From Acidobacteriota bacterium (lineage in GTDB: Bacteria; Acidobacteriota; Holophagae; Holophagales; Holophagaceae), in the NCBI GenBank assembly GCA_018269025.1, contig JAFDVN010000071.1, forward strand, positions 1 through 54,155: DNA of 54,155 nucleotides. The letters run 5' to 3'. The notes beneath the pieces were generated by a model. It was not told the DNA's origin, ran no database searches, and saw only the letters and a program-made list of their open reading frames with translations. Shown here piece after piece: positions 3,548-54,065 of the stretch (its first letter is position 1; each line of letters starts with the position of its first letter). Made by a program: the position numbers and the translations under genes.

Positions 3548-4705
3548 ATGGCATCCGCGTCCCAGCATTTCGACACCCTTTGCATCCACGCGGGCCAACA
3601 GCCCGATCCCCTCTCCGGCGCGGTGATGACGCCGGTCTACTTCACGAGCACCTACCTTCAGGAAGGGCTCGGAAAACACAAGGGCTTCGAATACGCCCGC
3701 ACCCGCAACCCCACCCGGGACGCGGTGCAGGGCAACCTCGCGGCGCTGGAAGGGGGCAAGCAGGCCATCGCCTTCGCCTCGGGCCTCGCGGCGACCCAAG
3801 CGATCCTTGAGCTGCTGGATGGCGGCGATCACCTGGTGCTCGGGAACAATGTCTACGGCGGCACCTTCCGGCTCGTGGACAAGATCATGGCCCGCTTCGG
3901 CATCGTCTACACCCAAGTGGACACTTCGGATCTCGCCGCGCTGAAAGCCGCGATCACGCCGAAGACGAAACTCGTGATGTTGGAGACGCCGACCAATCCC
4001 ATGCTCGGGCTGTCCGACATCGCGGCCGTCCGCACGGTCGTGAAGGAAGCCGCGCCGAACGCGATTCTCGCGGTGGACAACACCTTCGCCACGCCCTTCA
4101 ACCAGCAGCCCTTGAGCCTGGGGGCCGACCTCGTCTTCCACAGCACGACGAAGTACCTGAATGGCCACAGCGATTCCATCGGCGGCGTTGTCGTCACCAA
4201 CAACGACGATCTCGCCGCCAAGCTCGCCTTCATCCAGAACGCCGCAGGCGCGATCCTCTCGCCCATGGAGAGCTTCCTCATCCTGCGGGGCACCAAGACG
4301 CTGCACCTTCGCATGGCTCGTCACAATGAAAGCGCCTTGAAGATCGCCCGGTGGCTGGAGGCGCGAACGGATCTTACGGCCGTCTACTACCCCGGCCTAG
4401 AGTCCCATCCCCAGCACGAGCTCGCAAATCGCCAGATGAAGGGCTTCAGCGGCATCGTGAGCTTCGACACCGGCGATACCGAGAAGACCCGCCGCGTGGC
4501 CGAGCGCTTCAAGATCTTCGCCCTCGCCGAATCCCTCGGCGGCGTCGAAAGCCTCGTCTGCCACCCCGCGTCCATGACCCACGGCTCCGTTCCCGCAGCC
4601 GACCGCGCCAAGCTCGGCCTCACCGACAGCCTCCTGCGCCTCAGCGTCGGCGTGGAAGCCGCCGAGGACCTGATCGCCGACCTGGAGCATGCTTTGAAGG
4701 CATGA
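3548..4705 (+). CDS. Cys/Met-metabolism PLP-dependent enzyme (cystathionine gamma-synthase / beta-lyase / gamma-lyase family)
   Basis: Real start MASASQHFDTLCIHAG at 3548; the track ORF starts earlier, antisense to the neighbouring gene. STTKYLNGHSDSIGG PLP-lysine motif and C-terminal LRLSVGVE. Confidence 0.9.
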   Translation: MASASQHFDTLCIHAGQQPDPLSGAVMTPVYFTSTYLQEGLGKHKGFEYARTRNPTRDAVQGNLAALEGGKQAIAFASGLAATQAILELLDGGDHLVLGNNVYGGTFRLVDKIMARFGIVYTQVDTSDLAALKAAITPKTKLVMLETPTNPMLGLSDIAAVRTVVKEAAPNAILAVDNTFATPFNQQPLSLGADLVFHSTTKYLNGHSDSIGGVVVTNNDDLAAKLAFIQNAAGAILSPMESFLILRGTKTLHLRMARHNESALKIARWLEARTDLTAVYYPGLESHPQHELANRQMKGFSGIVSFDTGDTEKTRRVAERFKIFALAESLGGVESLVCHPASMTHGSVPAADRAKLGLTDSLLRLSVGVEAAEDLIADLEHALKA

Positions 4706-4740: not shown

Positions 4741-4826
4741 TACGCGGAGGACAGCGGAGAAGCGGAGGGCAGCCGAGAAGGACTATAACCTCCGCTGCCC
4801 TCCGCTTCTCCGCTGTCCTCCGCGTG
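4741..4826. terminator. very long perfect hairpin between convergent genes (bidirectional terminator / REP-like palindrome)
   Basis: Arm GCGGAGGACAGCGGAGAAGCGGAGGGCAGC (4744-4773) is the exact reverse complement of 4794-4823. The loop is 20 nt and pairing extends 2-3 bp outward. Confidence 0.8.
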
Positions 4827-4859
4827 GTTGTTTTTCTTCGCGTTCTTCGCGGTGAATCG

Positions 4860-5447
4860 TTATTTGATTCCGTGCTCCCGGAACAGCGTCGGGTAGCTCC
4901 GCCGCTCGACGCGGTCGCTGCCGAGGTGCAGGTGTTCGGCGGCGGCTTTGATGGCGTGGGGGTCGCCTTCCAGTTCCAGGAAGCAGCCGAAGGGCGTCTC
5001 ATCCAGGCAAGCGACGAGTTCATCGCGATTCAAAATGGCGCGCGTCTTCTCCATGGTCAGCACCGGCGCGAAGCCTAGGGCGGTGAGGATGGCCTCCAGC
5101 GCGTCGGCGTCTTCCACTGCTGTTTCTTCTTCGGGGCGGATCTTGAGGATCGGATCGGGCACGACGGCGCCCTTCCAGGTGAGGATCGTCTTGCCCGCGT
5201 AGCGGCGGACGCGCAGGGCGGAGCCGCGAGCGGCCAACTCTCCGTTCCGGTCCCAGAGCACGCTGATCTCGCGTTGGGCGGGTGTCGTCTCCACGAACCC
5301 CATGGCCCGAAGCAGTTCCCGAATGGGTGGGATGGCCGGAATGCGGAGTTTCAGTTCGGTTTCGATCGCGTTCCGGTGCTTCAAGGGCCTGCCTCCGGCA
5401 TGATGGGCAGAACGGATGGTGCCCTTGCCCTCCACCAAGTATCTCAT
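4860..5447 (-). CDS. CYTH-domain protein (class IV adenylate cyclase / triphosphatase family)
   Basis: ExExK signature IETELKLRI near the N-terminus, size about 195 aa. Start uncertain: ATG at 5447 or GTG at 5435, both overlapping the divergent gene start at 5416. Confidence 0.7.
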   Translation of the reverse strand: MRYLVEGKGTIRSAHHAGGRPLKHRNAIETELKLRIPAIPPIRELLRAMGFVETTPAQREISVLWDRNGELAARGSALRVRRYAGKTILTWKGAVVPDPILKIRPEEETAVEDADALEAILTALGFAPVLTMEKTRAILNRDELVACLDETPFGCFLELEGDPHAIKAAAEHLHLGSDRVERRSYPTLFREHGIK

Positions 5448-18796: not shown

Positions 18797-21622
18797 ATGC
18801 TAACGATGAGATCTTCGCTTTGGGTGGTACCGGCCCTTTGCATCGGTGTGCTGGGCTGTTCGGACAAGGCAGGAGCTTCGGAGGACTCGGCCCCCGCGAT
18901 CACGACCCAGCCGACGAGTGTGACGGTGACGCCGAACAGTGCAGCCTCCTTCTCCGTCACAGCGACCGGAGCAGCCCCTCTTACCTACCAATGGCGCAAG
19001 AACGCGGGGGCCATCGCCGGAGCGACTTCCAGCACCTACGCCATCACCTCGGCCCAGGCCGGAGATGCGGGGACTTACGATGTGGTGGTTTCCAACCCGA
19101 AAGGCAGCGCGAGGAGCAACGGCGCGACGCTGACGGTGAGCGCGGCGTTGTCCGCGCCGGTGATCACGACGCAACCCAGCGGGAAGAGTGTCACGGCGGG
19201 GAGCTCCGCGACCTTTACGGTAGCGGCGAGCGGAAACCCAGCCCCGACCTACCAGTGGCAGCGGAACAATGGCGGCGGATGGAACCCGGTCAGCGGGGCG
19301 ACGAGCGCGTCCTACTCCCTTTCCGGGGCGCAGGTCTCCGACAACGGAGCCCAGTTCCGGTGTGTGGCGACCAATAGCCAGGGCAGCGCGACGAGCAACG
19401 GTGCGACGCTGACGGTGAGCGCGGCGTTGTCGGCCCCGGTGATCACGACGCAACCCAGCGGGAAGAGTGTCACGGCGGGGAGCTCCGCGACCTTTACGGT
19501 GGCGGCGAGCGGAAACCCAGCCCCGACCTACCAGTGGCAGCGGAACAATGGCGGCGGATGGAACCCGGTGAGCGGGGCGACGAGCGGGTCCTACACGCTG
19601 TCCGGAGCCCAAGTGTCCGACAACGGAGCCCAGTTCCGGTGTGTGGCCACGAATAGCCAAGGCAACGCGACGAGCAATGGCGCGACGCTGACGGTCAGCG
19701 CGGCGGGCGCGTTGGCGCCGCCCGTGTTCACAGCCCAACCTGAGTCGCGATTGGCGGCGACGGGATCCTCCCCAACCTATGCGGTCACCGTGACCGGAAG
19801 CCCCACGCCGGCCCTCCAGTGGCAGCGCAGTTCGGATGGCACCACTTGGTCAGATATTGGCGGCGCGACGAGCACGACCCTCACCCTCGCGAATGTGACC
19901 GCCTCCAATTCGAATACCAAGGTGCGGTGCCTGGCGAGCAACAACCAGGGGACGGACATGAGTGATCCAGCCGTGCTCGTAACGCAGACGCCAGGAGGGA
20001 CGACCTACTATGTGTCCCCCTCTGGCAATGACAGCAACGATGGCCTCACCCTTGGGACGGCCTGGGCGACCATCTCCCATGCGGCGGATTCAAGCAGTCC
20101 CGTGGGTCCAGGCGACACGGTGTATGTAGCGGCGGGCACCTACAACGAGACGGTGGAGCTTGAAAAGGCAGGAACGCCCGGCAACCCCATCGTGTTCCAG
20201 GGCTACAAGACCACGCCGGGCGACGCACCCTTGAAGCTGGTGGATCGCGCAAATGCGTATACCGCCTTCAATGGGTTCGATATGCCTCTCATCAACGGGG
20301 GTGACCGTACGAGTGGCATCGGTCTGGATAGCCCCCATGGGAAGAATCTGGTGATTCGCAATTTCCAAATTCGGAATGTGGCCTATGGCGTGAATTTGGG
20401 GGACAGCACCCAGAACGCCGGGAGCAACTGGCTCGACAATGTGGGCGTCATGACCGTGGGTGATCCGTCGGATGATTATCAAGGCGAAGGCATCCTCATG
20501 GGGAGCATGGGAACCCGGTTCACCAACAGCAACATGGTGACGGATTGTCTGGTGGTGAACGCTTGCGCTGAAGGTATTGATGTGAACGGCACGGGGAATG
20601 TCCTGGTGGGTTGCAAGGTTTACTGCAACGACAACACGGACAACGCTCCAACGGATTACTACATCATGATCACGGGGGATTCGAACGCCGCGTACGCCTG
20701 TTACATCGAACGAGCGCCCGGCCTTTCCCACGCGGGCCATGGGCTCGGGGCCAAGACGAACGCGGAGCAAGTCGTGGACCAAGGCCTGAATCTCCCGGCC
20801 ATTTCAGCGAGATACAATCAATTCATCCATTGCACCGCGCGGAACATGGGCGAGTCCTTCTATGTGCGGCACCGCACGGCCCAGTACAACCTGTTCTATC
20901 GGTGTACGGCCATTGGGACCTATTCCGGTGCATCCCAGGCGGCTGAAGGAGAAGGGAATGGAATCGAAACGCGGGATGGCGCCAGCGACAATGTGTTCGA
21001 TGGGCTGATCGTCAAGAATTGTGATGCTGGCATCGAATTTCGAGACACGGTGGAAGATGGCGACACCATGAGTAATCCCCCGGGACATCCTGGGAACAAC
21101 AACCTCTACAAGAACTGCCTCATCCTGAATTGTCGCCTCGCGGTTGATTTTGACGATTACAGCGTGGCGTCCGACGCGGGGGACAACACCATCGCGGATT
21201 GCACCTTCTACAAGAACCGCTACTTGTTCGACTGCGGGCGGGAATGCAACAGCATGAAGTATGTTGGAAATATCTTTGAAGGAACCCTGCAGGACGGAGT
21301 CGGAGGGGCCTTCTTCTCGCCGAGTCACCCGACTTTCGACGGTGAGGTTATTCCCAACGGGGTGAATAGCTACTTCAAGAATTGTGATTTTCACAACATC
21401 GAAGGGGGCATGCCTTCTGGCTTTGTATCAGCTGCAAGCGGGTCTATCGCCTCAGACCCAATGTTTGTGGATCCGGCGAATCTGAACTTTCGTTTAACTC
21501 CGGGAAGCCCGTGCGTGGACAGCGGCCTTTCGGTGACTGGCGTTTCGACGGATCGAGACGGGATCGGGCGTCCCCAGGGCGGCACACCGGACATGGGTGC
21601 TTATGAGGCCCACACGCCCTGA
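18797..21622 (+). CDS. large surface lipoprotein: four Ig-like repeats + right-handed parallel beta-helix domain
   Basis: Start at MLTMRSSLWVVPALCIGVLGC (lipobox). About 93-aa repeats with TYQWQRN...GATS.SY.LSGAQVSDNGAQFRCVATNSQG.ATSNGATLTV. The C-terminal part has repetitive N/G/D-rich beta-helix-like turns and the ending GTPDMGAYE. Confidence 0.8.
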   Translation: MLTMRSSLWVVPALCIGVLGCSDKAGASEDSAPAITTQPTSVTVTPNSAASFSVTATGAAPLTYQWRKNAGAIAGATSSTYAITSAQAGDAGTYDVVVSNPKGSARSNGATLTVSAALSAPVITTQPSGKSVTAGSSATFTVAASGNPAPTYQWQRNNGGGWNPVSGATSASYSLSGAQVSDNGAQFRCVATNSQGSATSNGATLTVSAALSAPVITTQPSGKSVTAGSSATFTVAASGNPAPTYQWQRNNGGGWNPVSGATSGSYTLSGAQVSDNGAQFRCVATNSQGNATSNGATLTVSAAGALAPPVFTAQPESRLAATGSSPTYAVTVTGSPTPALQWQRSSDGTTWSDIGGATSTTLTLANVTASNSNTKVRCLASNNQGTDMSDPAVLVTQTPGGTTYYVSPSGNDSNDGLTLGTAWATISHAADSSSPVGPGDTVYVAAGTYNETVELEKAGTPGNPIVFQGYKTTPGDAPLKLVDRANAYTAFNGFDMPLINGGDRTSGIGLDSPHGKNLVIRNFQIRNVAYGVNLGDSTQNAGSNWLDNVGVMTVGDPSDDYQGEGILMGSMGTRFTNSNMVTDCLVVNACAEGIDVNGTGNVLVGCKVYCNDNTDNAPTDYYIMITGDSNAAYACYIERAPGLSHAGHGLGAKTNAEQVVDQGLNLPAISARYNQFIHCTARNMGESFYVRHRTAQYNLFYRCTAIGTYSGASQAAEGEGNGIETRDGASDNVFDGLIVKNCDAGIEFRDTVEDGDTMSNPPGHPGNNNLYKNCLILNCRLAVDFDDYSVASDAGDNTIADCTFYKNRYLFDCGRECNSMKYVGNIFEGTLQDGVGGAFFSPSHPTFDGEVIPNGVNSYFKNCDFHNIEGGMPSGFVSAASGSIASDPMFVDPANLNFRLTPGSPCVDSGLSVTGVSTDRDGIGRPQGGTPDMGAYEAHTP
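19132..19689 (+). repeat. tandem 279-bp duplication inside the lipoprotein gene (two near-identical Ig-like modules)
   Basis: GACGGTGAGCGCGGCGTTGTC... restarts exactly 279 bp later (19132 and 19411). Long identical runs; differences cluster in one about 40-bp patch. Confidence 0.9.
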
Positions 21623-32455: not shown

Positions 32456-33104
32456 ACCGCTCGCTGCCCTGCTCTTCGCCCCGGCGCTGCTCGCAGGCGG
32501 GCTCCAAGGCCCCGTGAAGGTGGTGGACAAGCATGGAGAGCGGCCGACCCTCAAGGACGCCATCGCCATCCTGGAGCCGCTCACCCACCGTGCGGATGCC
32601 CAGAAGCGGCCCATGCTACGCATCCGCACCACGGGCAAGCGCTTCGTCCCCCGCGTCGCCTGGACCACGCCCGGCAGTCCCGTGAGTTTTCCGAACCAGG
32701 ACCACATTCTCCACAATGTGTTCAGCGTGACCCCCGGCGAAGCCTTCGACACTGGCCACTACGAGCCCGGCGACGCGCCCCGCTGGACCGCGGCGAAGCC
32801 CGGCCTCGTGAAGCTCTACTGCAATGTGCACCGGAAGATGAACGCCTTCCTCTGGATCGTTGACACCCCCTGGGCCGATGTCCTCGATGGCCAGAAGGGG
32901 TTGGACTTCAAGAATGTGCCCCCCGGCCGCTACAAGCTCCGGCTTTGGCATCCCGAAGTGGGCGAGAAGGACTTCGAAGTGAGCATTGGCGAAGGCGTCA
33001 CCATGGGGAATTGGACCCTCCAGGCGAACCTGCCGGACTTCGAGCCCCACAAGAACAAGTTCGGCAAGGACTATCCGCCCGCGAAGGACGAGGGAAATTA
33101 CTGA
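32448..33104 (+). CDS. cupredoxin-like protein with C-terminal Ig/carboxypeptidase-regulatory-like domain
   Basis: Overlaps the previous stop by 8 nt. Signal peptide. FPNQDHILHNVFS and YCNVHRKM (Cu-site-like pattern), then PGRYKLRLWHPE. Confidence 0.7.
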   Translation: MVKPLAALLFAPALLAGGLQGPVKVVDKHGERPTLKDAIAILEPLTHRADAQKRPMLRIRTTGKRFVPRVAWTTPGSPVSFPNQDHILHNVFSVTPGEAFDTGHYEPGDAPRWTAAKPGLVKLYCNVHRKMNAFLWIVDTPWADVLDGQKGLDFKNVPPGRYKLRLWHPEVGEKDFEVSIGEGVTMGNWTLQANLPDFEPHKNKFGKDYPPAKDEGNY

Positions 33105-37593: not shown

Positions 37594-38889
37594 TCAGTCT
37601 TTCGCCGGGGTGGGTTCCTGGGTGTGCGTCCGCATGAGCACCGAGACGGCGATGACACGATCCTCCGCGCCCCGCACGGGGGCAAAGGTCAGGTCCGCCT
37701 GGAAAGGTTCCCCCCGGCGCAGCACTTCGCCATCGGGGATGCGGACGATTTCGCCCGCGCCCACCTTGGTGAGCAGGTCCGGCAGGAGGGCGAGGCCCCC
37801 ATCCACCATGAGGCGGGAGAAGGGCTGGCCGAGTGCCTCGGCGCGGGGGAGGGCGAAGATCGCCTCGGCCGCGGCGTTCCAGGTGAGGATGCGGCCGTCG
37901 GCGCCGAAGGAGGCGAGCCCATCCCCCAGGTTGTGGAGCAGGCTTTCCAAGTAGCGGCGGGTCTTCTGGGTTTCCTGATGACTGCGCTCGAGCTGGGCGT
38001 AGAGCTGGCCCATCTCCTGGTTGCGCTGTTCCAGTTCCTCCTTCGCGGAGCGCAGCTCCGAGTAGAGGCGTGCCGTCTCCATGCTGGATTTGAGCGCGTC
38101 CTCCAGCAGGTCCTGGGTTTCCGCGCGACCATCGGGTTGCAGGTCGTCAATGGTCACGCCCGCGTGGCGCAGGATCACCGCGGGCGGTTGCTCGGGCGCC
38201 GTGCCCGGCGCGGCAGCGGTGCCCACCTCTCGCAGCGCCTGGCTCAGGTTGCTGTCAATGAGCGCCAGCATGGCGTCGAAGTCCTTCACCTTCTTGTCGA
38301 GGTTGAACTTCTTGAAGGTGTAGTCCACCGTCTCCCGGGTGATGGCGCGGAAGGTTTCCGCCACGCCGATGCCTTGAGAGGCGATGGCCTCGAAGAAGGG
38401 CGCGTTGCGGAAGTTGAGACGGCGGTTCATCACGCCAACGGCGAGGGCATCCGGCAAGTCCCGCTTGTTGAACTGGAGCACCAGGGGGATCTGCTTGATG
38501 TTCAGGCGGTTCGCGTTGAGGTTGTGATAGAGGTTGCTGAGCGAATCCACATTGTCCTGCATCTTCGCTTCGGCCGAATCCGCCACGAAGACGACGCCAT
38601 CGGCGCCCCCCAGCACCACGCGGCGGCTGGCGTCGTACTGGATCTGACCGGGCACGGTGTAGACCTGCAGGTGGATCGCGTTGCCGTAGATGTAGCCGAG
38701 GTTGATGGGCAGCAGGTCGAAGAAGAGGGTGCGGTCTTCCTGGGTGTTCACGCTGAACATCTCGCCGCGCTGTGCCTCACCGCAGAGGGCGTGGAGCTGC
38801 TGGAGGTTCGTCGTCTTGCCCGAAAGCCCCGGCCCGTAATAGACCAGCTTCAGCAGGATCTCGTTGGCTCGCGTGTTGAATTGGACCAT
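37594..38889 (-). CDS. MglA-family Ras-like GTPase fused to C-terminal coiled coil and PAS domain
   Basis: N-terminal about 190 aa: LVYYGPGLSGKTTNL, DRTLFFDLLP, YTVPGQ, FVADS, QFNKRDL (all MglA hallmarks). Then a heptad-rich helix (ETARLYSELRSAKEELEQRNQEMGQLYAQLERS) and PAS-like LGDGLASFGADGRILTWNAAAEAIFALPRAEALGQPF. Confidence 0.85.
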   Translation of the reverse strand: MVQFNTRANEILLKLVYYGPGLSGKTTNLQQLHALCGEAQRGEMFSVNTQEDRTLFFDLLPINLGYIYGNAIHLQVYTVPGQIQYDASRRVVLGGADGVVFVADSAEAKMQDNVDSLSNLYHNLNANRLNIKQIPLVLQFNKRDLPDALAVGVMNRRLNFRNAPFFEAIASQGIGVAETFRAITRETVDYTFKKFNLDKKVKDFDAMLALIDSNLSQALREVGTAAAPGTAPEQPPAVILRHAGVTIDDLQPDGRAETQDLLEDALKSSMETARLYSELRSAKEELEQRNQEMGQLYAQLERSHQETQKTRRYLESLLHNLGDGLASFGADGRILTWNAAAEAIFALPRAEALGQPFSRLMVDGGLALLPDLLTKVGAGEIVRIPDGEVLRRGEPFQADLTFAPVRGAEDRVIAVSVLMRTHTQEPTPAKD

Positions 38890-39056
38890 GGCGGCAGGGG
38901 AAGGGATCAGCCTAGCACGGGGAAAAAACCGGGGACCTTCCCCCCTCTCAACGGCAAGGTGCCTGTTTGGATCAAATCCTGGAGGGGGGAGAGTCGGGGG
39001 CCTTTTCGGACCTTCATTGGGCTAACATGAATGGTTCTACGAATTCCTGGTAGCCC

Positions 39057-39266
39057 ATGAGCGTCCCCTCCCATGTCGCGATTATTTTCTCGGTATCGGC
39101 TTTGCCGATACGCGAGACCTCCCCTGCCAGCGGTGCATCGGCCGCTAGGGGGAGTACCTTGTGAGCATTCCGACCCATGTGGCCATCATCTTCTCGGTAT
39201 CGGCTCCGCCGATACGCGAGACCTCGCGCTAGGTTGGGCCTTGTCCGATCCAAGGGTGTCTTCCCG
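39057..39266 (+). repeat. two tandem about 105-bp units, each beginning with a copy of the uppS start (mini-ORFs) followed by a hairpin
   Basis: Unit A 39057-39160 starts ATGAGCGTCCCCTCCCATGTCGCGATTATT. Unit B 39161-39266 starts GTGAGCATTCCGACCCATGTGGCCATCATC. The real uppS at 39267 starts ATGAGCATTCCGACCCATGTCGCCGTCATT. Hairpins TCTCGGTATCGGC-NNN-GCCGATACGCGAGA at 39088-39117 and 39192-39221. Confidence 0.9.
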
Positions 39267-39953
39267 ATGAGCATTCCGACCCATGTCGCCGTCATTTTGG
39301 ACGGCAACGGCCGCTGGGCTGCCCAGCGGGGGCAGGCGCGCATTAAAGGGCACAAGGCCGGGGTCCGGGCGGTGGAGGCCATCCTGGACGAGGCCTCGGA
39401 CCTGGGCATCCAGCATTTGAGCCTCTATGCCTTCAGCACCGAGAATTGGAAGCGGCCCGCCTTCGAGGTGACGGCGCTCATGGCGCTGCTCCGCATGTAC
39501 TTGCGGATGTTCGTGCCCAAGCTTCTCGCCAAGGGCACCCGCTTCCATCACCTGGGCAGCGTGGAGGGTCTTCCCGCCGGGGTGGTGTCGGATCTCCACT
39601 GGCTGGAGGCGAAGACGGCCCATGGGACGGGCATGACCTTTCACCTGGCCGTGAATTACGGCTCCCGCCTGGAAATCGCCCAAGCGGCCGCCCGCTGCGT
39701 GGCGGACGGATTGAGGCCGGATCAGGTGGATGAGGCCGCCCTCCAGGCCCGGCTCTGGACGGCGGGCGTGCCGGATGTGGATCTGCTCATCCGCACCAGC
39801 GGCGAGCACCGCATCTCCAACTTCCTGCTCTGGCAGGCGGCCTATGCCGAGTTGCACCTGACGGACATCCTTTGGCCCGATTTCGGGCCCGCCCAGCTCC
39901 GCGAGGCCCTCGCCGACTTCGGGGCCCGGGAGCGGCGTTTTGGCGGGTTGTAG
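39267..39953 (+). CDS. uppS: undecaprenyl diphosphate synthase
   Basis: MSIPTHVAVILDGNGRWA, FSTENWKRP, and RTSGEHRISNFLLWQAAYAEL motifs. Confidence 0.95.
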   Translation: MSIPTHVAVILDGNGRWAAQRGQARIKGHKAGVRAVEAILDEASDLGIQHLSLYAFSTENWKRPAFEVTALMALLRMYLRMFVPKLLAKGTRFHHLGSVEGLPAGVVSDLHWLEAKTAHGTGMTFHLAVNYGSRLEIAQAAARCVADGLRPDQVDEAALQARLWTAGVPDVDLLIRTSGEHRISNFLLWQAAYAELHLTDILWPDFGPAQLREALADFGARERRFGGL

Positions 39954-40889: not shown

Positions 40890-42037
40890 CACGGAAAGTC
40901 GCGATCCTCGGCTCCACCGGCAGCATCGGCTGTTCGGCGCTGGAGGTGGTGCGCGCCCATCCGGATCGGCTCGCCGTCGTCGCGTTGGCGGCGGGGCGCA
41001 ATCGAGATCGCTTGCGGGAGCAGTGCGAAGCCTTCCGCCCGCGCCTCGTGAGCGTTGCCACCGACGAGGACGCGATCTGGTTGAAGGGGCAACTCTCCTT
41101 CCAGCCTGAGATCGTCTTTGGGGCGGAAGGCCTCATGGCCTGCGCGCTGCACGGCGACGCGGACACGGTGCTCGCGGCGGTGGTGGGCGCGATCGGCCTA
41201 CCCTCCACCGAAGCCGCGTTGCGGGCGGGCAAGCGGGTCTGCGTGGCAAATAAGGAATCCCTCGTCGTCGGCGGCGCGCTCATGCGCCGGGCGCTGGAGG
41301 CGGGCGGCGGCGAGCTGCTTCCGGTGGATAGCGAGCACGCGGCGCTGCACCAGCTTCTCGCGGGCCGCGCGACCGCCGACATCGCCGAGCTGCGCCTCAC
41401 CGCCAGCGGCGGCCCGTTTCGCGACTGGCCGCTCGAAAAGATCCGCGCCGCCACGAAATCCGAAGCCCTGAACCACCCCACCTGGAAGATGGGCCCCAAG
41501 ATCACCATTGATAGCGCGACCCTGATGAACAAGGGGCTGGAGGTCATCGAGGCCTCCGTTCTCTTCGGGCTCGGTGCGGACCGCATCGCCGTCACCGTCC
41601 ATCCCCAAAGCCAGGTCCACGCGATGGTGGGCTTCGCGGATGGCACCTACCAGCTCCAGGTCTGTGCCAACGACATGAAGCTGCCCATCCAATACTGCCT
41701 GCTCCATCCCGACAAGGTGCCGGGGCCCGTCCCGCCCTACGATTGGGAGGCGAGTCGCGCGTGGACCTTCGAAGCCCCCGATCTCGCGCGCTTTCCGCTC
41801 CTGGGCTTGGCCTTCGACGCGCTTCGGGCCGGGGGCACGGCCCCCGCGATCCTCAACGCGGCGAACGAAGTCGCCGTCGCGTTTTTCCTGGAAGGACGGC
41901 TTGGATTCTGGGACATCCAGGCCTGTGTGCGGGAGACCTTGAACGCGGTTCCCAGCGAACCCATGCTGGATCTTCCCCAGGTGCTGGATGCGGACCGCCG
42001 CGCCCGGGCCTTCGCGGAAACCTGGGCGTCCGCCTGA
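40886..42037 (+). CDS. dxr: 1-deoxy-D-xylulose 5-phosphate reductoisomerase
   Basis: TTG start overlapping the cdsA stop. VAILGSTGSIG, LANKESLV, PVDSEH, NKGLEVIEA motifs. Confidence 0.9.
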   Translation: MTRKVAILGSTGSIGCSALEVVRAHPDRLAVVALAAGRNRDRLREQCEAFRPRLVSVATDEDAIWLKGQLSFQPEIVFGAEGLMACALHGDADTVLAAVVGAIGLPSTEAALRAGKRVCVANKESLVVGGALMRRALEAGGGELLPVDSEHAALHQLLAGRATADIAELRLTASGGPFRDWPLEKIRAATKSEALNHPTWKMGPKITIDSATLMNKGLEVIEASVLFGLGADRIAVTVHPQSQVHAMVGFADGTYQLQVCANDMKLPIQYCLLHPDKVPGPVPPYDWEASRAWTFEAPDLARFPLLGLAFDALRAGGTAPAILNAANEVAVAFFLEGRLGFWDIQACVRETLNAVPSEPMLDLPQVLDADRRARAFAETWASA

Positions 42038-42069
42038 TCTGACCGCCTGATCTGACCGCCTGATCTGAA
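42031..42069. repeat. 13-bp direct repeat x3 (CGCCTGATCTGAC) spanning the dxr stop
   Basis: Copies at 42031, 42044 and 42057 (the last ends ...GAA). Each copy carries two TGA triplets, so stops occur in all three frames. Confidence 0.9.
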
Positions 42070-53511: not shown

Positions 53512-53527
53512 GGCCTATGATCCTCCC

Positions 53528-53668
53528 ATGGACGCTGCTTCCTTCGACCTCGTCGCCACCCATCATGTCGCGACCAGGACGGGTCTCACTTGGCGCACTG
53601 CGTCAAGTGAGGGGAACCCGTCGGGAGCGAGTCCGTCGCCAGTGGGCCTAGACTGGTCCCATGCCTGA
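53528..53668 (+). other. 46-codon upstream ORF whose N-terminus duplicates the thioesterase start; its stop overlaps the real ATG (ATGCCTGA)
   Basis: MDAASFDLVATHHVATR... versus the real MPEATFDLVATHHVLTL.... A 28-nt identical run CCTTCGACCTCGTCGCCACCCATCATGT occurs at 53541-53568 and 53674-53701. Confidence 0.7.
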
Positions 53669-54065
53669 AGCCACCTTCGACCTCGTCGCCACCCATCATG
53701 TTCTGACCCTCCACTTGGGCGTGGCGGGCACACTCTTTGGGGGAACGCTGCTCGCGTGGGTGGACGAAGCCGCCGCGCTCTACGCCACCCGCGCCGCCGA
53801 CAACCGCTTCGTCACCTTCGAGTTGGAACGGGTGCGCTTCCTCCTGCCCTGCTTCATGGGCGATGTGGTGGATGTGTGCGCGCGACCCATCCAGGCCACC
53901 ACTTCAGGACTCGAGCTGGAAGTGAAAGCCGCGCGTCTCCGGGCGGATGGCAGCGAAGAAGTGGTGCTCAGCACCCGCGCCGTGATGGTGGCGGTGGATG
54001 GGGATGGAAAGAAGACGCCGATCAAGTTCAGGCCGGGATGGGCGGCGCGGTTCGGGAAGGCGTGA
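53661..54065 (+). CDS. hotdog-fold acyl-CoA thioesterase (YciA/4HBT-like)
   Basis: GTLFGGTLLAWVDEAA motif, about 134 aa, typical of the family. Confidence 0.8.
   Translation: MPEATFDLVATHHVLTLHLGVAGTLFGGTLLAWVDEAAALYATRAADNRFVTFELERVRFLLPCFMGDVVDVCARPIQATTSGLELEVKAARLRADGSEEVVLSTRAVMVAVDGDGKKTPIKFRPGWAARFGKA

Follow-up and report, generated by a model that had tools for sequence, protein, structure and literature searches.

The window analysed here, a stretch of 54,155 nucleotides from an Acidobacteriota bacterium of the family Holophagaceae, contains the operon uppS-cdsA-dxr-rseP, which was confirmed by Pfam matches to the same genes in identical contigs; the parts of its two repeat loci located below lie on the plus strand. 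The first gene, uppS (39267..39953), codes for an undecaprenyl-diphosphate synthase of 228 amino acids (PF01255 on the identical protein), and its start is present three times in tandem, as a first-pass annotation of this DNA had noticed. The window has exactly three matches to the degenerate pattern TGAGCNTYCCSWCCCATGTSGCSRTYATY (39058, 39162 and 39268), shuffled sequences have none, and the start copies are spaced 104 and 106 nt apart. While the copies of the start are thus real, the repeated part extends further than the 30 nt of the start alone. The region 39015-39296 is organised as D0-HP-D1-HP-D2, where D is a block of 72-74 nt of which the final 30 nt are the uppS start, and HP is a hairpin of 32 nt (TTCTCGGTAT-N11-ATACGCGAGAC); block and hairpin together form the repeat unit.

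The leftmost block, D0 (39015..39086), is contiguous with the native upstream DNA, ends in a first pseudo-start of 30 nt (MSVPSHVAII), and is collinear, upstream hairpin GGGCTA...TAGCC included, with the start region of uppS in the closest relative (L207), where the real start is the only one. It is followed by hairpin copy 1 (39087..39118, TTCTCGGTATCGGCTTTGCCGATACGCGAGAC, 54.1 bits with covariance model R1), by the middle block D1 (39119..39190), which consists of 42 non-coding nt and a second pseudo-start (VSIPTHVAII), by hairpin copy 2 (39191..39222, TTCTCGGTATCGGCTCCGCCGATACGCGAGAC, 55.2 bits with R1), and by the gene-proximal block D2 (39223..39296), in which a 'tail' of 44 nt, orthologous to the tails of L209, L211 and L212, precedes the first 30 nt of the real uppS. 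Within this genome, similarity between the D copies is left only in the 30 coding nt and, between copies 2 and 3, in some 15 nt upstream of these. Each upstream copy diverges from uppS where a hairpin with arms of 13 bp begins, as had been described: directly after copies 1 and 2 stands TTCTCGGTAT-CGGC-TTT/TCC-GCCG-ATACGCGAGAC, a stem of 13 pairs with one bulged G, which folds as DNA at -12.3 kcal/mol (z = -6.0 and -3.4). The hairpin core does not occur elsewhere in the 54 kb (0 occurrences expected by chance), and isolated half-sites are found in the window at chance level only.

The two mini-ORFs also read as described. Mini-ORF 1 (39057..39164, 35 codons) reads TTC TCG GTA through hairpin 1, and its TGA overlaps the GTG of mini-ORF 2 (GTGA), which passes through hairpin 2 (39161..39232, 23 codons) and stops 35 nt before the uppS ATG. 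Further upstream, TTGGAT at 38967..38972 is a putative -10 box of the uppS promoter: a consensus promoter scan did not call it, and every uppS upstream region used for comparison has TAGGAT, TAGCAT or TAGAAT at the corresponding position. If this assignment is correct, the repeat units lie inside a transcribed 5' leader. Elsewhere in the operon, a 13-nt sequence free of the hairpin is repeated three times in tandem across the dxr stop.

A second locus in the window has the same architecture with a different hairpin insert. The stretches 53512-53575 and 53645-53708, 64 nt long, are 77% identical and 133 nt apart. The first of these, D0' (53512..53575), comprises a native intergenic spacer of 16 nt and the original start of an acyl-CoA thioesterase gene, now a pseudo-start (MDAASFDLVATHHV), and it adjoins the start of a divergent SIR2-family gene, the same position that the real start occupies in L218 and L219. 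The second, D1' (53645..53708), is the gene-proximal copy and carries the real start of the thioesterase (53661..54065, 134 aa, hotdog fold, PF03061 on homologues). Between them lies insert X (53576..53644, 69 nt), with a hairpin of 45 nt at 53578-53622 that is unrelated to the uppS hairpin and folds at -25.5 kcal/mol (z = -4.0). A mini-ORF of 46 codons plus stop (53528..53668) reads through X, and its TGA overlaps the real start (ATGCCTGA). The insert is missing from relatives, the thioesterase site being empty in L218, L219 and L220, and its hairpin (CTCACTTG..CAAGTGAG) has no match in 206 other loci. The first-pass annotation had taken the arrangement at 53528 for the same phenomenon as that at uppS, and its view that the recurrence argues against a random scar holds, although the insert belongs to a different hairpin.

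A dispersed hairpin family

The pattern TTCTCGGTATN{7,17}ATACGCGAGAC finds matches in at least 120 metagenome contigs, and the hairpin is therefore a dispersed repeat. In the DNA covered its copies are sparse: the 54-kb window holds a single locus, and some 170 kb from relatives added one further copy. In the viral contigs the pattern matches once, and a phage origin was rejected on this ground. The ends of the hairpin read TTCT... and ...GAGAC on one strand, and GTCT... and ...AGAA on the other. The lower stem (TTCTCGGTAT / ATACGCGAGAC), which has a single bulged G, is conserved, although the outer 21 nt were fixed by the search pattern, so that their conservation is not an independent result, and the upper stem of 4 bp and the loop of 3 nt are free to vary. 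This upper stem occurs in seven different Watson-Crick combinations, 90% of its pairs are Watson-Crick, and CG to GC swaps are seen in three stem pairs. Such covariation could stem from the copying mechanism instead of from selection.

Direct duplications of the adjacent gene end flank about one third of the hairpin copies. About half of the copies of the 32-nt class have no flanking duplication and stand in REP-like intergenic clusters, with a conserved AAACTGATATCTG extension, and the family may thus spread in more ways than one. Clustering the open reading frames around hairpin copies returned only orthologous host loci, with no linked transposase, recombinase or reverse transcriptase, in a search weakened by spurious high-GC reading frames. 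A small ORF family on the opposite strand (M..VSRIAAGDTEK..) was also considered and found unconvincing, with an in-frame ATG within 45 nt in 24 of 76 copies as against 18 and 11 in the control frames; a Pfam search with this ORF found nothing. Against Rfam, the window matched a tRNA and no other family, and 16 loci with the hairpin matched none; the hairpin thus does not belong to an RNA family described there.

Length, polarity and target of the duplications

Duplications abut the hairpin at the 5' ends of uppS, a manC-like gene, polA, a cyd-like gene, a permease gene and rdgB, and, with the hairpin on the opposite strand, at the 3' ends of rpsT, nuoJ, two biotinyl-domain genes and five others. 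The period from copy to copy is 103-108 nt in at least 13 unrelated genes, regardless of the length of the similarity that is still visible, and the intact gene always lies 3' of the hairpin (16 of 16 loci). At the target junction, 16 of 17 loci read YTC|TT. In young copies the duplicated block measures 66-75 nt, and the identity spans the whole block, non-coding DNA included: 66 nt at 100% in L171, where the block takes in the rpsT terminator, 73 nt at 100% in L086, and a block of 70 nt in L091. Duplication lengths cluster tightly at 71-76 nt. However, four loci have a longer period (157-215 nt), and a strict ruler is thus not the whole story. Between the duplicates there is only the hairpin and a filler of 0-9 nt at the right junction, which is a better match for illegitimate joining or template switching than for clean transposase chemistry.

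Two accounts of the duplicated block were tried and given up. A block ending where the transcript ends holds at rpsT, where it ends at the U-tract of the terminator (L171 and L109), and fails at L179 and L091. Copying through the mRNA of the gene was rejected, because the 5' cases are sense and the 3' cases antisense to the hairpin. The in-frame bias of the 3' cases (9 of 10) was not counted as selection, as it is probably a by-product of a TT/AA target on codon positions 1-2 in GC3-rich genes. The differences between the truncated copies and the genes fall mostly on third codon positions (22/13/61 by codon position at 5' ends, 0/2/19 at 3' ends). Of the two copies in L209, the truncated one is the better preserved: at 3920 it is ancestral and GC3-rich (0.88), and its gene-proximal counterpart is AT3-rich (0.44), with synonymous differences only. 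Neither the third-position bias nor this pattern is predicted by a model of purely selfish scars.

Variation among relatives

The uppS unit is found in Geothrix and other Holophagaceae, with 0-2 units upstream of the orthologous genes. The window has two units, Geothrix sp. PMB-07 and one further Geothrix genome have one each, and G. limicola has two; PMB-07 and G. limicola are isolate genomes. The manC loci carry 1-4 units. The uppS site is empty in the closest relative (L207, with an UppS 94% identical) and in L002, and the unit is absent from this closest relative and from Holophaga with the operon intact in both. Filled and empty sites are also seen at 3920-3951 in L209, which is filled, and at the orthologous positions 33050-33103 of the window, which are empty.

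The uppS unit is old, and its copies have evolved in concert. The pseudo-starts are 84% identical to the real start of their own genome, 75% to the real starts of other genomes and 72% to the orthologous pseudo-starts. Between species, their conservation (0.72) comes near to that of the first 10 codons of the real gene (0.79), with flanking non-coding DNA at 0.32-0.35. Among uppS orthologues, single-sided changes in the stem gave a G.U pair in all of about five independent events. Throughout the family, on the other hand, G.T and A.C mismatches are balanced (5 to 8), and selection at the RNA level on the family as a whole was discarded for want of such a strand signature. Apart from the hairpin itself and invariant contacts of 5 bp without covariation, RNAalifold on nine species detected no further conserved structure in the uppS leader.

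The mini-ORFs show a regularity of their own. Relative to the next start, the frame that runs through the hairpin closes at -37 to +5 nt in 20 of 20 5' units examined; in at least 14 of these 20 it closes at -8 to +1 nt, and in the remainder earlier. Most of the stops overlap or touch the next start (GTGA, ATGA, TAGTG, TGATG or TAGATG), an effect that comes in part from native start contexts like ATGA. A translational coupling of the mini-ORFs to the real gene is plausible.

Origin of the units

Taken together, the three uppS starts are probably the flanking duplications of a mobile hairpin akin to REPs, MITEs and MIRUs that duplicates about 72 bp of its target, followed by expansion, contraction and concerted evolution of the resulting array. 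A palindromic element with a long target duplication was the first of three explanations offered in the first-pass annotation, and it is favoured by the dispersal of the hairpin, by duplications in many unrelated genes and by the pairs of filled and empty sites. A new copy would join precisely at a YTC|TT target within a gene, near its 5' or 3' end, and the same event would duplicate a block of about 72 nt outward of the joining point, giving the order U-D-hairpin-D-gene. The distal D copy would become a truncated gene end, and the gene would stay intact because the gene-proximal copy is continuous with it. I infer that the target was either cut with a long stagger, as if by a ruler, during insertion, or copied through a replicative template switch. 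Between the two D copies, whole units of 105 nt could then be gained or lost by unequal recombination or replication slippage (0-2 at uppS), an exchange that would preserve the likeness of the coding parts and let the non-coding part of D diverge. As a truncated 5' copy retains a working initiation region, it would make a mini-ORF through the hairpin that stops at or just before the next start; such mini-ORFs would be translated, and translation would probably be passed on to the real gene, as has been proposed for mycobacterial MIRUs.

Against this reading stands the duplication of 72 bp, for which there is no precedent in a small element. In a full-text search of the open-access literature, small palindromic repeats with long duplications of their flanks were nowhere described, and about 72 bases is far longer than any duplication I found described for small bacterial repeats. 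I put forward only tentatively, and as rather less likely than its opposite, that the hairpin may be the visible part of an unrecognised class of mobile elements, in which the target is cut or copied at two points some seven helical turns (72 bp) apart, with fixed polarity, either by an integrase of the ruler type or by a polymerase that is target-primed and switches templates. The deliberate duplication of the gene end would then let essential genes survive, and the mini-ORFs, each a gene fragment with a linker encoded by the hairpin, would be translated and selected instead of being scars.

Alternatively, the units could be a selected regulatory leader, in which hairpin and mini-ORF control the translation or stability of the essential gene downstream. 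Ribosomes that loaded at the duplicated initiation region would open the hairpin and then pass to the real start, with the number of units tuning expression, and the hairpin might also bind a protein. The persistence of the uppS unit across genera agrees with this, as do the compensatory changes that keep its stem, the five or so single-sided changes that all led to G.U, and the differences concentrated at third codon positions; MIRUs, too, are thought to work in this way (PMC12548453). The conservation of the pseudo-starts, almost equal to that of the first 10 real codons, and the mini-ORF stops that overlap or abut the next start also point in this direction. However, the former is largely due to concerted evolution and the latter partly to the native start contexts, and the balance of G.T and A.C mismatches holds for the whole family. 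Moreover, the same hairpin occurs antisense at 3' ends, behind terminators and in intergenic clusters, so one role at the RNA level cannot fit all copies. I regard a regulatory leader as unlikely to be the explanation. Its more specific form, the leader-peptide attenuator suggested in the first-pass annotation, is not supported: the plus strand of 38800-39400 has no terminator-like site, the hairpins being followed by CTCCCC and CTCGCG and not by a U-tract, no conserved alternative pairing and no Rfam match were found, and the unit is missing in the closest relative and in Holophaga despite an intact operon.

It is more doubtful still that the units are scars of site-specific recombination or of an integrative element, with the hairpin as a recombinase site of the attC or dif kind and the gene-proximal copy as a surrogate gene end left by a lost element. 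The core sites R''/R' of integron attC read RYYYAAC ... GTTRRRY. With its conserved outer arms, free but paired centre and extrahelical base, the hairpin may be likened to folded attC sites; its centre covaries and the bulged G is conserved (the outer 21 nt again being set by the search pattern). It has no R''/R' core sites, the R-box consensus GTTRRRY being absent. Strict polarity with an intact gene on one side would also fit, and the L209 copy at 3920 looks as it should if the AT3-rich, only synonymously different gene-proximal copy were a foreign surrogate end beside an ancestral truncated one. However, young copies duplicate local non-coding DNA exactly (the terminator in L171, the upstream spacer at 53645 in the window, and L086), and the second copy must consequently have been made from resident sequence. 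In addition, only 32 nt and 0-9 nt lie between the copies, and the clustering of reading frames revealed no integrase beside any copy.

Plain local tandem duplication by slippage, with junctions that happened to evolve hairpins, is hardly credible as the origin of the units. Arrays of identical units that vary in number do exist, and the triple repeat at the dxr stop has no hairpin, but the same 32-nt sequence stands at the junction in at least 16 unrelated genes of many genomes and is also found without a duplication. Slippage fails to explain the origin since the insert is foreign and not a diverged copy of the DNA downstream, as judged against shuffles at both loci of the window (for insert X, a score of 5.0 with a shuffle mean of 4.6). 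Of the slippage or duplication scars proposed in the first-pass annotation, what survives is the later change in unit number, 0-2 at uppS and up to 4 at manC, together with concerted evolution. An expanded or collapsed repeat in the assembly, finally, deserves practically no credence, as six assemblies, each from a different sample, agree at 100% over a region of 311 nt, the isolate genomes Geothrix sp. PMB-07 and G. limicola have the same architecture, and the three copies share no 31-mers able to mislead an assembler.

Comparison with known repeats

MIRU units measure 46-101 bp. These short mobile repeats occupy gene starts within operons, as tandem units of variable number, and carry a small ORF whose stop overlaps the next gene's start, an arrangement thought to allow insertion with little effect on expression (PMC12548453). 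The units described here are alike in their variable number at gene starts (0-2 at uppS, 1-4 at manC) and in stops placed on the next start (GTGA, ATGA, TGATG, TAGTG). However, the whole MIRU unit is the same at all loci, whereas here only 32 nt are common and the other 72 nt or so are the local gene end; the present units are also found, oppositely oriented, at 3' ends, and their hosts are Holophagaceae and not Mycobacterium.

REPs and BIMEs are dispersed imperfect palindromes of 20-40 bp, often beside or overlapping gene ends and sometimes inside the 5' ends of open reading frames, and the survey that describes them reports no flanking duplication (PMC3733652). With 32 nt, a stable stem-loop (13 pairs and a bulged G, z = -3.4 to -6.0) and many copies in REP-like intergenic clusters, the present hairpin is similar, but it has no GTAG or CGTC tag at either end and, in the DNA covered, a low copy density, with one extra copy in about 170 kb. 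Tagged REPs go with a cognate RAYT gene (a Y1 transposase) that the repeats flank; around copies of the present hairpin, the clustering of reading frames gave no recurrent mobile-element gene.

Target-site duplications of MITEs are short, a few bp (typically 2-10 bp), while the duplication here is about 72 bp, with a period of up to 215 nt at some loci. The present hairpin is not known to have a parent IS. Prokaryotic MITEs (Correia, ERIC, RPE and others) are non-autonomous and hairpin-forming, have direct repeats when young, and may be fused in frame with host ORFs; those reviewed exceed the present hairpin in size, and their terminal inverted repeats, of 4-30 bp, are separate (PMC10969869). 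The arms of the hairpin are inverted repeats as well, but they stand back to back and make up the entire 32-nt element.

The only bacterial elements that I found documented with long direct repeats on insertion are IS1634 and IS1549, whose repeats measure 8-514 bp and for which no mechanism was proposed (PMC2266710). Long direct repeats flank the present hairpin too. These insertion sequences are, however, autonomous DDE elements of 1.5-2 kb with repeats of widely variable length, as opposed to 32 nt and 71-76 nt here. In CRISPR spacer acquisition by Cas1-Cas2 (PMC4872114), a piece of about 32 nt is inserted in a polar manner and a flank of fixed length is duplicated by two ruler-set cuts. The likeness is in form only, a block-insert-block order with polarity: here the inserted piece is constant and the duplicated block specific to the locus, which is the reverse, there is no leader, and the 'spacers' between the hairpins, which in a CRISPR array would be unique, are copies of each other and of the gene start.

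If the mobile-hairpin reading is right, a tiny selfish repeat can enter uppS, polA, rpsT, nuoJ and other essential genes and leave the cell alive, by copying the gene end that it interrupts, and does so with an insertion geometry new to bacteria, combining a fixed duplication of about 72 bp with strict polarity. The units are variable-number tandem loci that could be used for typing Geothrix and other Holophagaceae, and a natural test bed for translational coupling and for the concerted evolution of very short repeats. They also affect gene annotation, creating false extended starts, as in one database entry that has UppS at 258 aa from inside a unit (P0072), and spurious small genes, as in L210, where an ORF of 29 aa was called.

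Results

As the first-pass annotation had claimed, the start of uppS is present three times in tandem: a degenerate pattern matches exactly three sites (39058, 39162 and 39268; none expected by chance), spaced 104 and 106 nt apart. Each upstream copy is followed by a hairpin, TTCTCGGTAT-CGGC-NNN-GCCG-ATACGCGAGAC, with a stem of 13 pairs and one bulged G, and both mini-ORFs, short frames running from a truncated extra start (pseudo-start) through the hairpin, were also found, the TGA of the first overlapping the next GTG. The register of the repeat is, however, not a 30-nt start plus an insert: comparison with related loci shows the unit to be a 32-nt hairpin between two copies of a block (D) some 72 nt long. 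D0 (39015-39086) and D1 (39119-39190) thus precede hairpin copies 1 (39087-39118) and 2 (39191-39222), and D2 (39223-39296) continues into uppS; likeness among these D copies is left only in the 30 coding nucleotides and, between D1 and D2, in about 15 nt upstream. The 311-nt repeat region is not an assembly artefact, as six assemblies, each from a different sample, share it without a difference. The gene order uppS-cdsA-dxr-rseP is confirmed by Pfam matches, which identify the divergent gene upstream as a Ras-like GTPase with PAS domains.

Upstream of D0, TTGGAT (38967-38972) aligns with TAGGAT, TAGCAT or TAGAAT, a box conserved ahead of uppS across all the Holophagaceae loci compared. Judged by sequence, it is likely a -10 box shared with the divergent promoter region, and the conserved TAGGAT/TAGAAT-like box suggests that the repeat units belong to the uppS leader. 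An inverted repeat, TGGGCTAACATGAAT / ATTCCTGGTAGCCCA (39018-39057), ends at the first ATG and is kept in the closest relative, L207, where uppS itself starts at that ATG; structure in the native initiation region is therefore possible. A second duplicated gene end within the operon has no hairpin: a perfect threefold 13-nt tandem repeat (CCGCCTGATCTGA, 42028-42068) overlaps the dxr stop codon.

The hairpin is a dispersed repeat. At least 120 metagenome contigs match TTCTCGGTATN{7,17}ATACGCGAGAC, with one match in the viral collection, and Rfam holds no family for it, neither for the window nor for 16 hairpin-bearing loci. The 11 nt at its centre vary in sequence without loss of pairing: the matches listed contain 47 distinct centres and seven different Watson-Crick combinations in the upper stem, 169 of 188 centre pairs are Watson-Crick, and CG is swapped to GC at three stem positions. 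The lower stem is set by the search pattern, so that independent evidence for its conservation comes from the uppS orthologues alone. Copies are sparse: in about 170 kb of sequence, window and related loci together, a covariance model found a single additional one. A separate family with a 16-17-nt centre and the same lower stem (TTCTCGGTATCCTGCGCTGCGCTTGGATACGCGAGAC) lies within a conserved dispersed element of about 250 nt at L083, L095, L114, L161 and about 17 other loci, mostly from metagenome Ga0268262; flank duplication was never seen among its listed matches, and Rfam gave no match. In the window, a palindrome that is nearly perfect, each arm about 30 bp long (4744-4823), lies downstream of a PLP-enzyme gene and is followed by ttcttcgcg repeats ending in ggtgaatcg (4834-4860). 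Clusters of motifs resembling these, cttggtg or cttcgtgg...gtgaat(c/g), flank many non-duplicated hairpin copies at metagenome loci.

Among the matches listed, the left flank recurs to the right of the hairpin in about one third of all copies, and in nearly half of the 32-nt class. The genes concerned are unrelated to one another, and either end may be affected: the 5' end, on the hairpin strand, in uppS, a manC-like nucleotidyltransferase gene, polA, a cyd-like gene, an FtsX-like permease gene and rdgB, and the 3' end, on the opposite strand, in rpsT, nuoJ, two biotinyl-domain genes, a DUF-type gene in L209 and four others. In young copies, identity spans the entire D block including non-coding DNA (66 nt at 100% with the rpsT terminator included in L171, 73 nt at 100% in L086, 70 nt with 3 mismatches in L091), and the second copy was therefore made from resident sequence. 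D blocks are of ruler-like length (71-76 nt), and the copy-to-copy period is 103-108 nt at 13 or more independent loci, whatever similarity survives, with longer periods at four loci (157, 171, 175 and about 215 nt). On its left the hairpin joins precisely, at YTC|TT in 16 of 17 loci, and the TT may be common to its own first two bases; the right junction carries a filler of 0-9 nt. Polarity is strict: at all 16 independent loci the hairpin has the intact gene body on its GAGAC side, and its TTCTCGG arm adjoins the truncated copy. At the nuoJ-nuoK junction of L144 and L149, the unit lies between the two genes, and since the truncated nuoJ end retains its native stop, 8 nt ahead of the nuoK start, nuoK still has its original coupling context behind the insertion.

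Filled and empty uppS sites occur among relatives of the window, which has two units. Ordered by UppS identity to the window, there are no units in L207 (94%), one with a decayed hairpin in L209 and L210 (91%), one in L211 (86%), L212 (82%) and Geothrix sp. PMB-07 (79%), two in G. limicola (79%), one in a further Geothrix genome, L216 (76%), two in L001 (74%) and none in Holophaga sp. (71%); L087 has at least one. The non-coding tails of the units are orthologous in the window, L209, L211 and L212, and the unit is therefore older than their split. The single start of L207 (MSVPSHVAII) corresponds to the leftmost pseudo-start of the window, most simply explained by secondary loss via recombination between D copies. 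Another filled/empty pair of the same hairpin family is formed by L209, filled at 3920-3951 (region compared 3780-4140), and the window, empty at 33050-33103. The manC loci carry one to four units, which in some genomes are near-identical tandem copies.

Pseudo-starts are closest to the real start of their own genome (identity 0.84, against 0.75 to real starts elsewhere and 0.72 to orthologous pseudo-starts), which indicates concerted evolution. Differences between truncated and real copies number 22/13/61 by codon position at 5' ends and 0/2/19 at 3' ends; unlike this coding part, the non-coding part of D diverges until unalignable. Concerted evolution accounts for much of the uppS divergence pattern, but not for L209 3920, where the pair differs by 11 synonymous and no non-synonymous changes. 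There the truncated copy has a GC3 of 0.88, as in the rest of the gene and the window orthologue, against 0.44 in the gene-proximal, real 3' end. By its codons, the truncated copy has retained the ancestral GC3-rich state, the real end having drifted by synonymous changes only; possible causes are translated, selected mini-ORFs, error-prone gene-proximal synthesis or selection for repeat divergence.

The recurrence of the phenomenon at 53528 was borne out in its architecture, which is lineage-specific here, but not in its hairpin. Two 64-nt blocks at a thioesterase start (53512-53575 and 53645-53708; 77% identical) enclose a 69-nt insert with a 45-nt hairpin, unrelated to the uppS hairpin and without match among 206 other loci; the insert is not a diverged copy of the downstream gene. 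The mini-ORF runs through it and stops within ATGCCTGA at the real thioesterase start. Relatives with thioesterases 81% and 78% identical have a single start, and in the related loci L218 and L219 this start lies 16 nt from a divergent SIR2-family gene, the position of the window pseudo-start.

Discussion

The simplest account of the uppS-type unit is a mobile or mobilised palindromic element. Its arrival at a YTC|TT site close to the end of a gene would duplicate roughly 72 bp of the target on the outward side, leaving the gene whole, with a truncated copy of its end behind the hairpin. Two processes could formally yield this: a transposon-like insertion whose staggered target cut is very long, or a replicative template switch in which the hairpin is copied from another locus with re-entry about 72 nt back. 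A template switch or a target-primed process would better fit the filler seen at one junction and the microhomology seen at the other, and the tight length together with the polarity favours a protein ruler; no enzyme for the spread was identified among the ORFs clustered near copies. In this account, the number of units later changes, and the units are homogenised, by slippage or by unequal exchange involving D copies or hairpins.

In how they work, the units come nearest to MIRUs, whose insertions are proposed to be harmless, the stop of a small ORF overlapping the downstream start (PMC12548453). At all 20 units examined at 5' ends, each retaining an initiation region, the frame TTC TCG GTA through the hairpin ends -37 to +5 nt from the next start, usually overlapping it, an overlap partly due to native start contexts (ATGA); the arrangement is suggestive of a similarly harmless insertion. 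In form, the hairpin is nearest to REPs (PMC3733652) and MITEs (PMC10969869), and the only elements I found documented as producing long direct repeats are IS1634 and IS1549 (PMC2266710). Each of these systems misses at least one defining feature, and in the open-access literature I found no small palindromic repeat described as having a flank duplication both long and fixed. It is less likely than not that the mechanism forms a class of its own.

The leader-peptide attenuator proposed initially finds no support, as the uppS leader has no U-tract terminator, conserved alternative pairing is absent across nine species, the unit is missing in L207, and this hairpin is also found at 3' ends, in antisense orientation, and within intergenic clusters. 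The units may still play a milder regulatory role, through coupling, dosage via unit number or protein binding.

The units have also misled public annotation. In L216 (10001-10777), the UppS protein P0072 is 30 aa too long, its start lying inside the unit, and in L210 (3915-4004) a 29-aa ORF consisting of hairpin and truncated gene end was called as a gene. A further repeat in the window, a 279-nt tandem repeat of 2.2 copies (19101-19705; 93% identical) inside a 1036-aa ORF, is probably a repeated protein domain.
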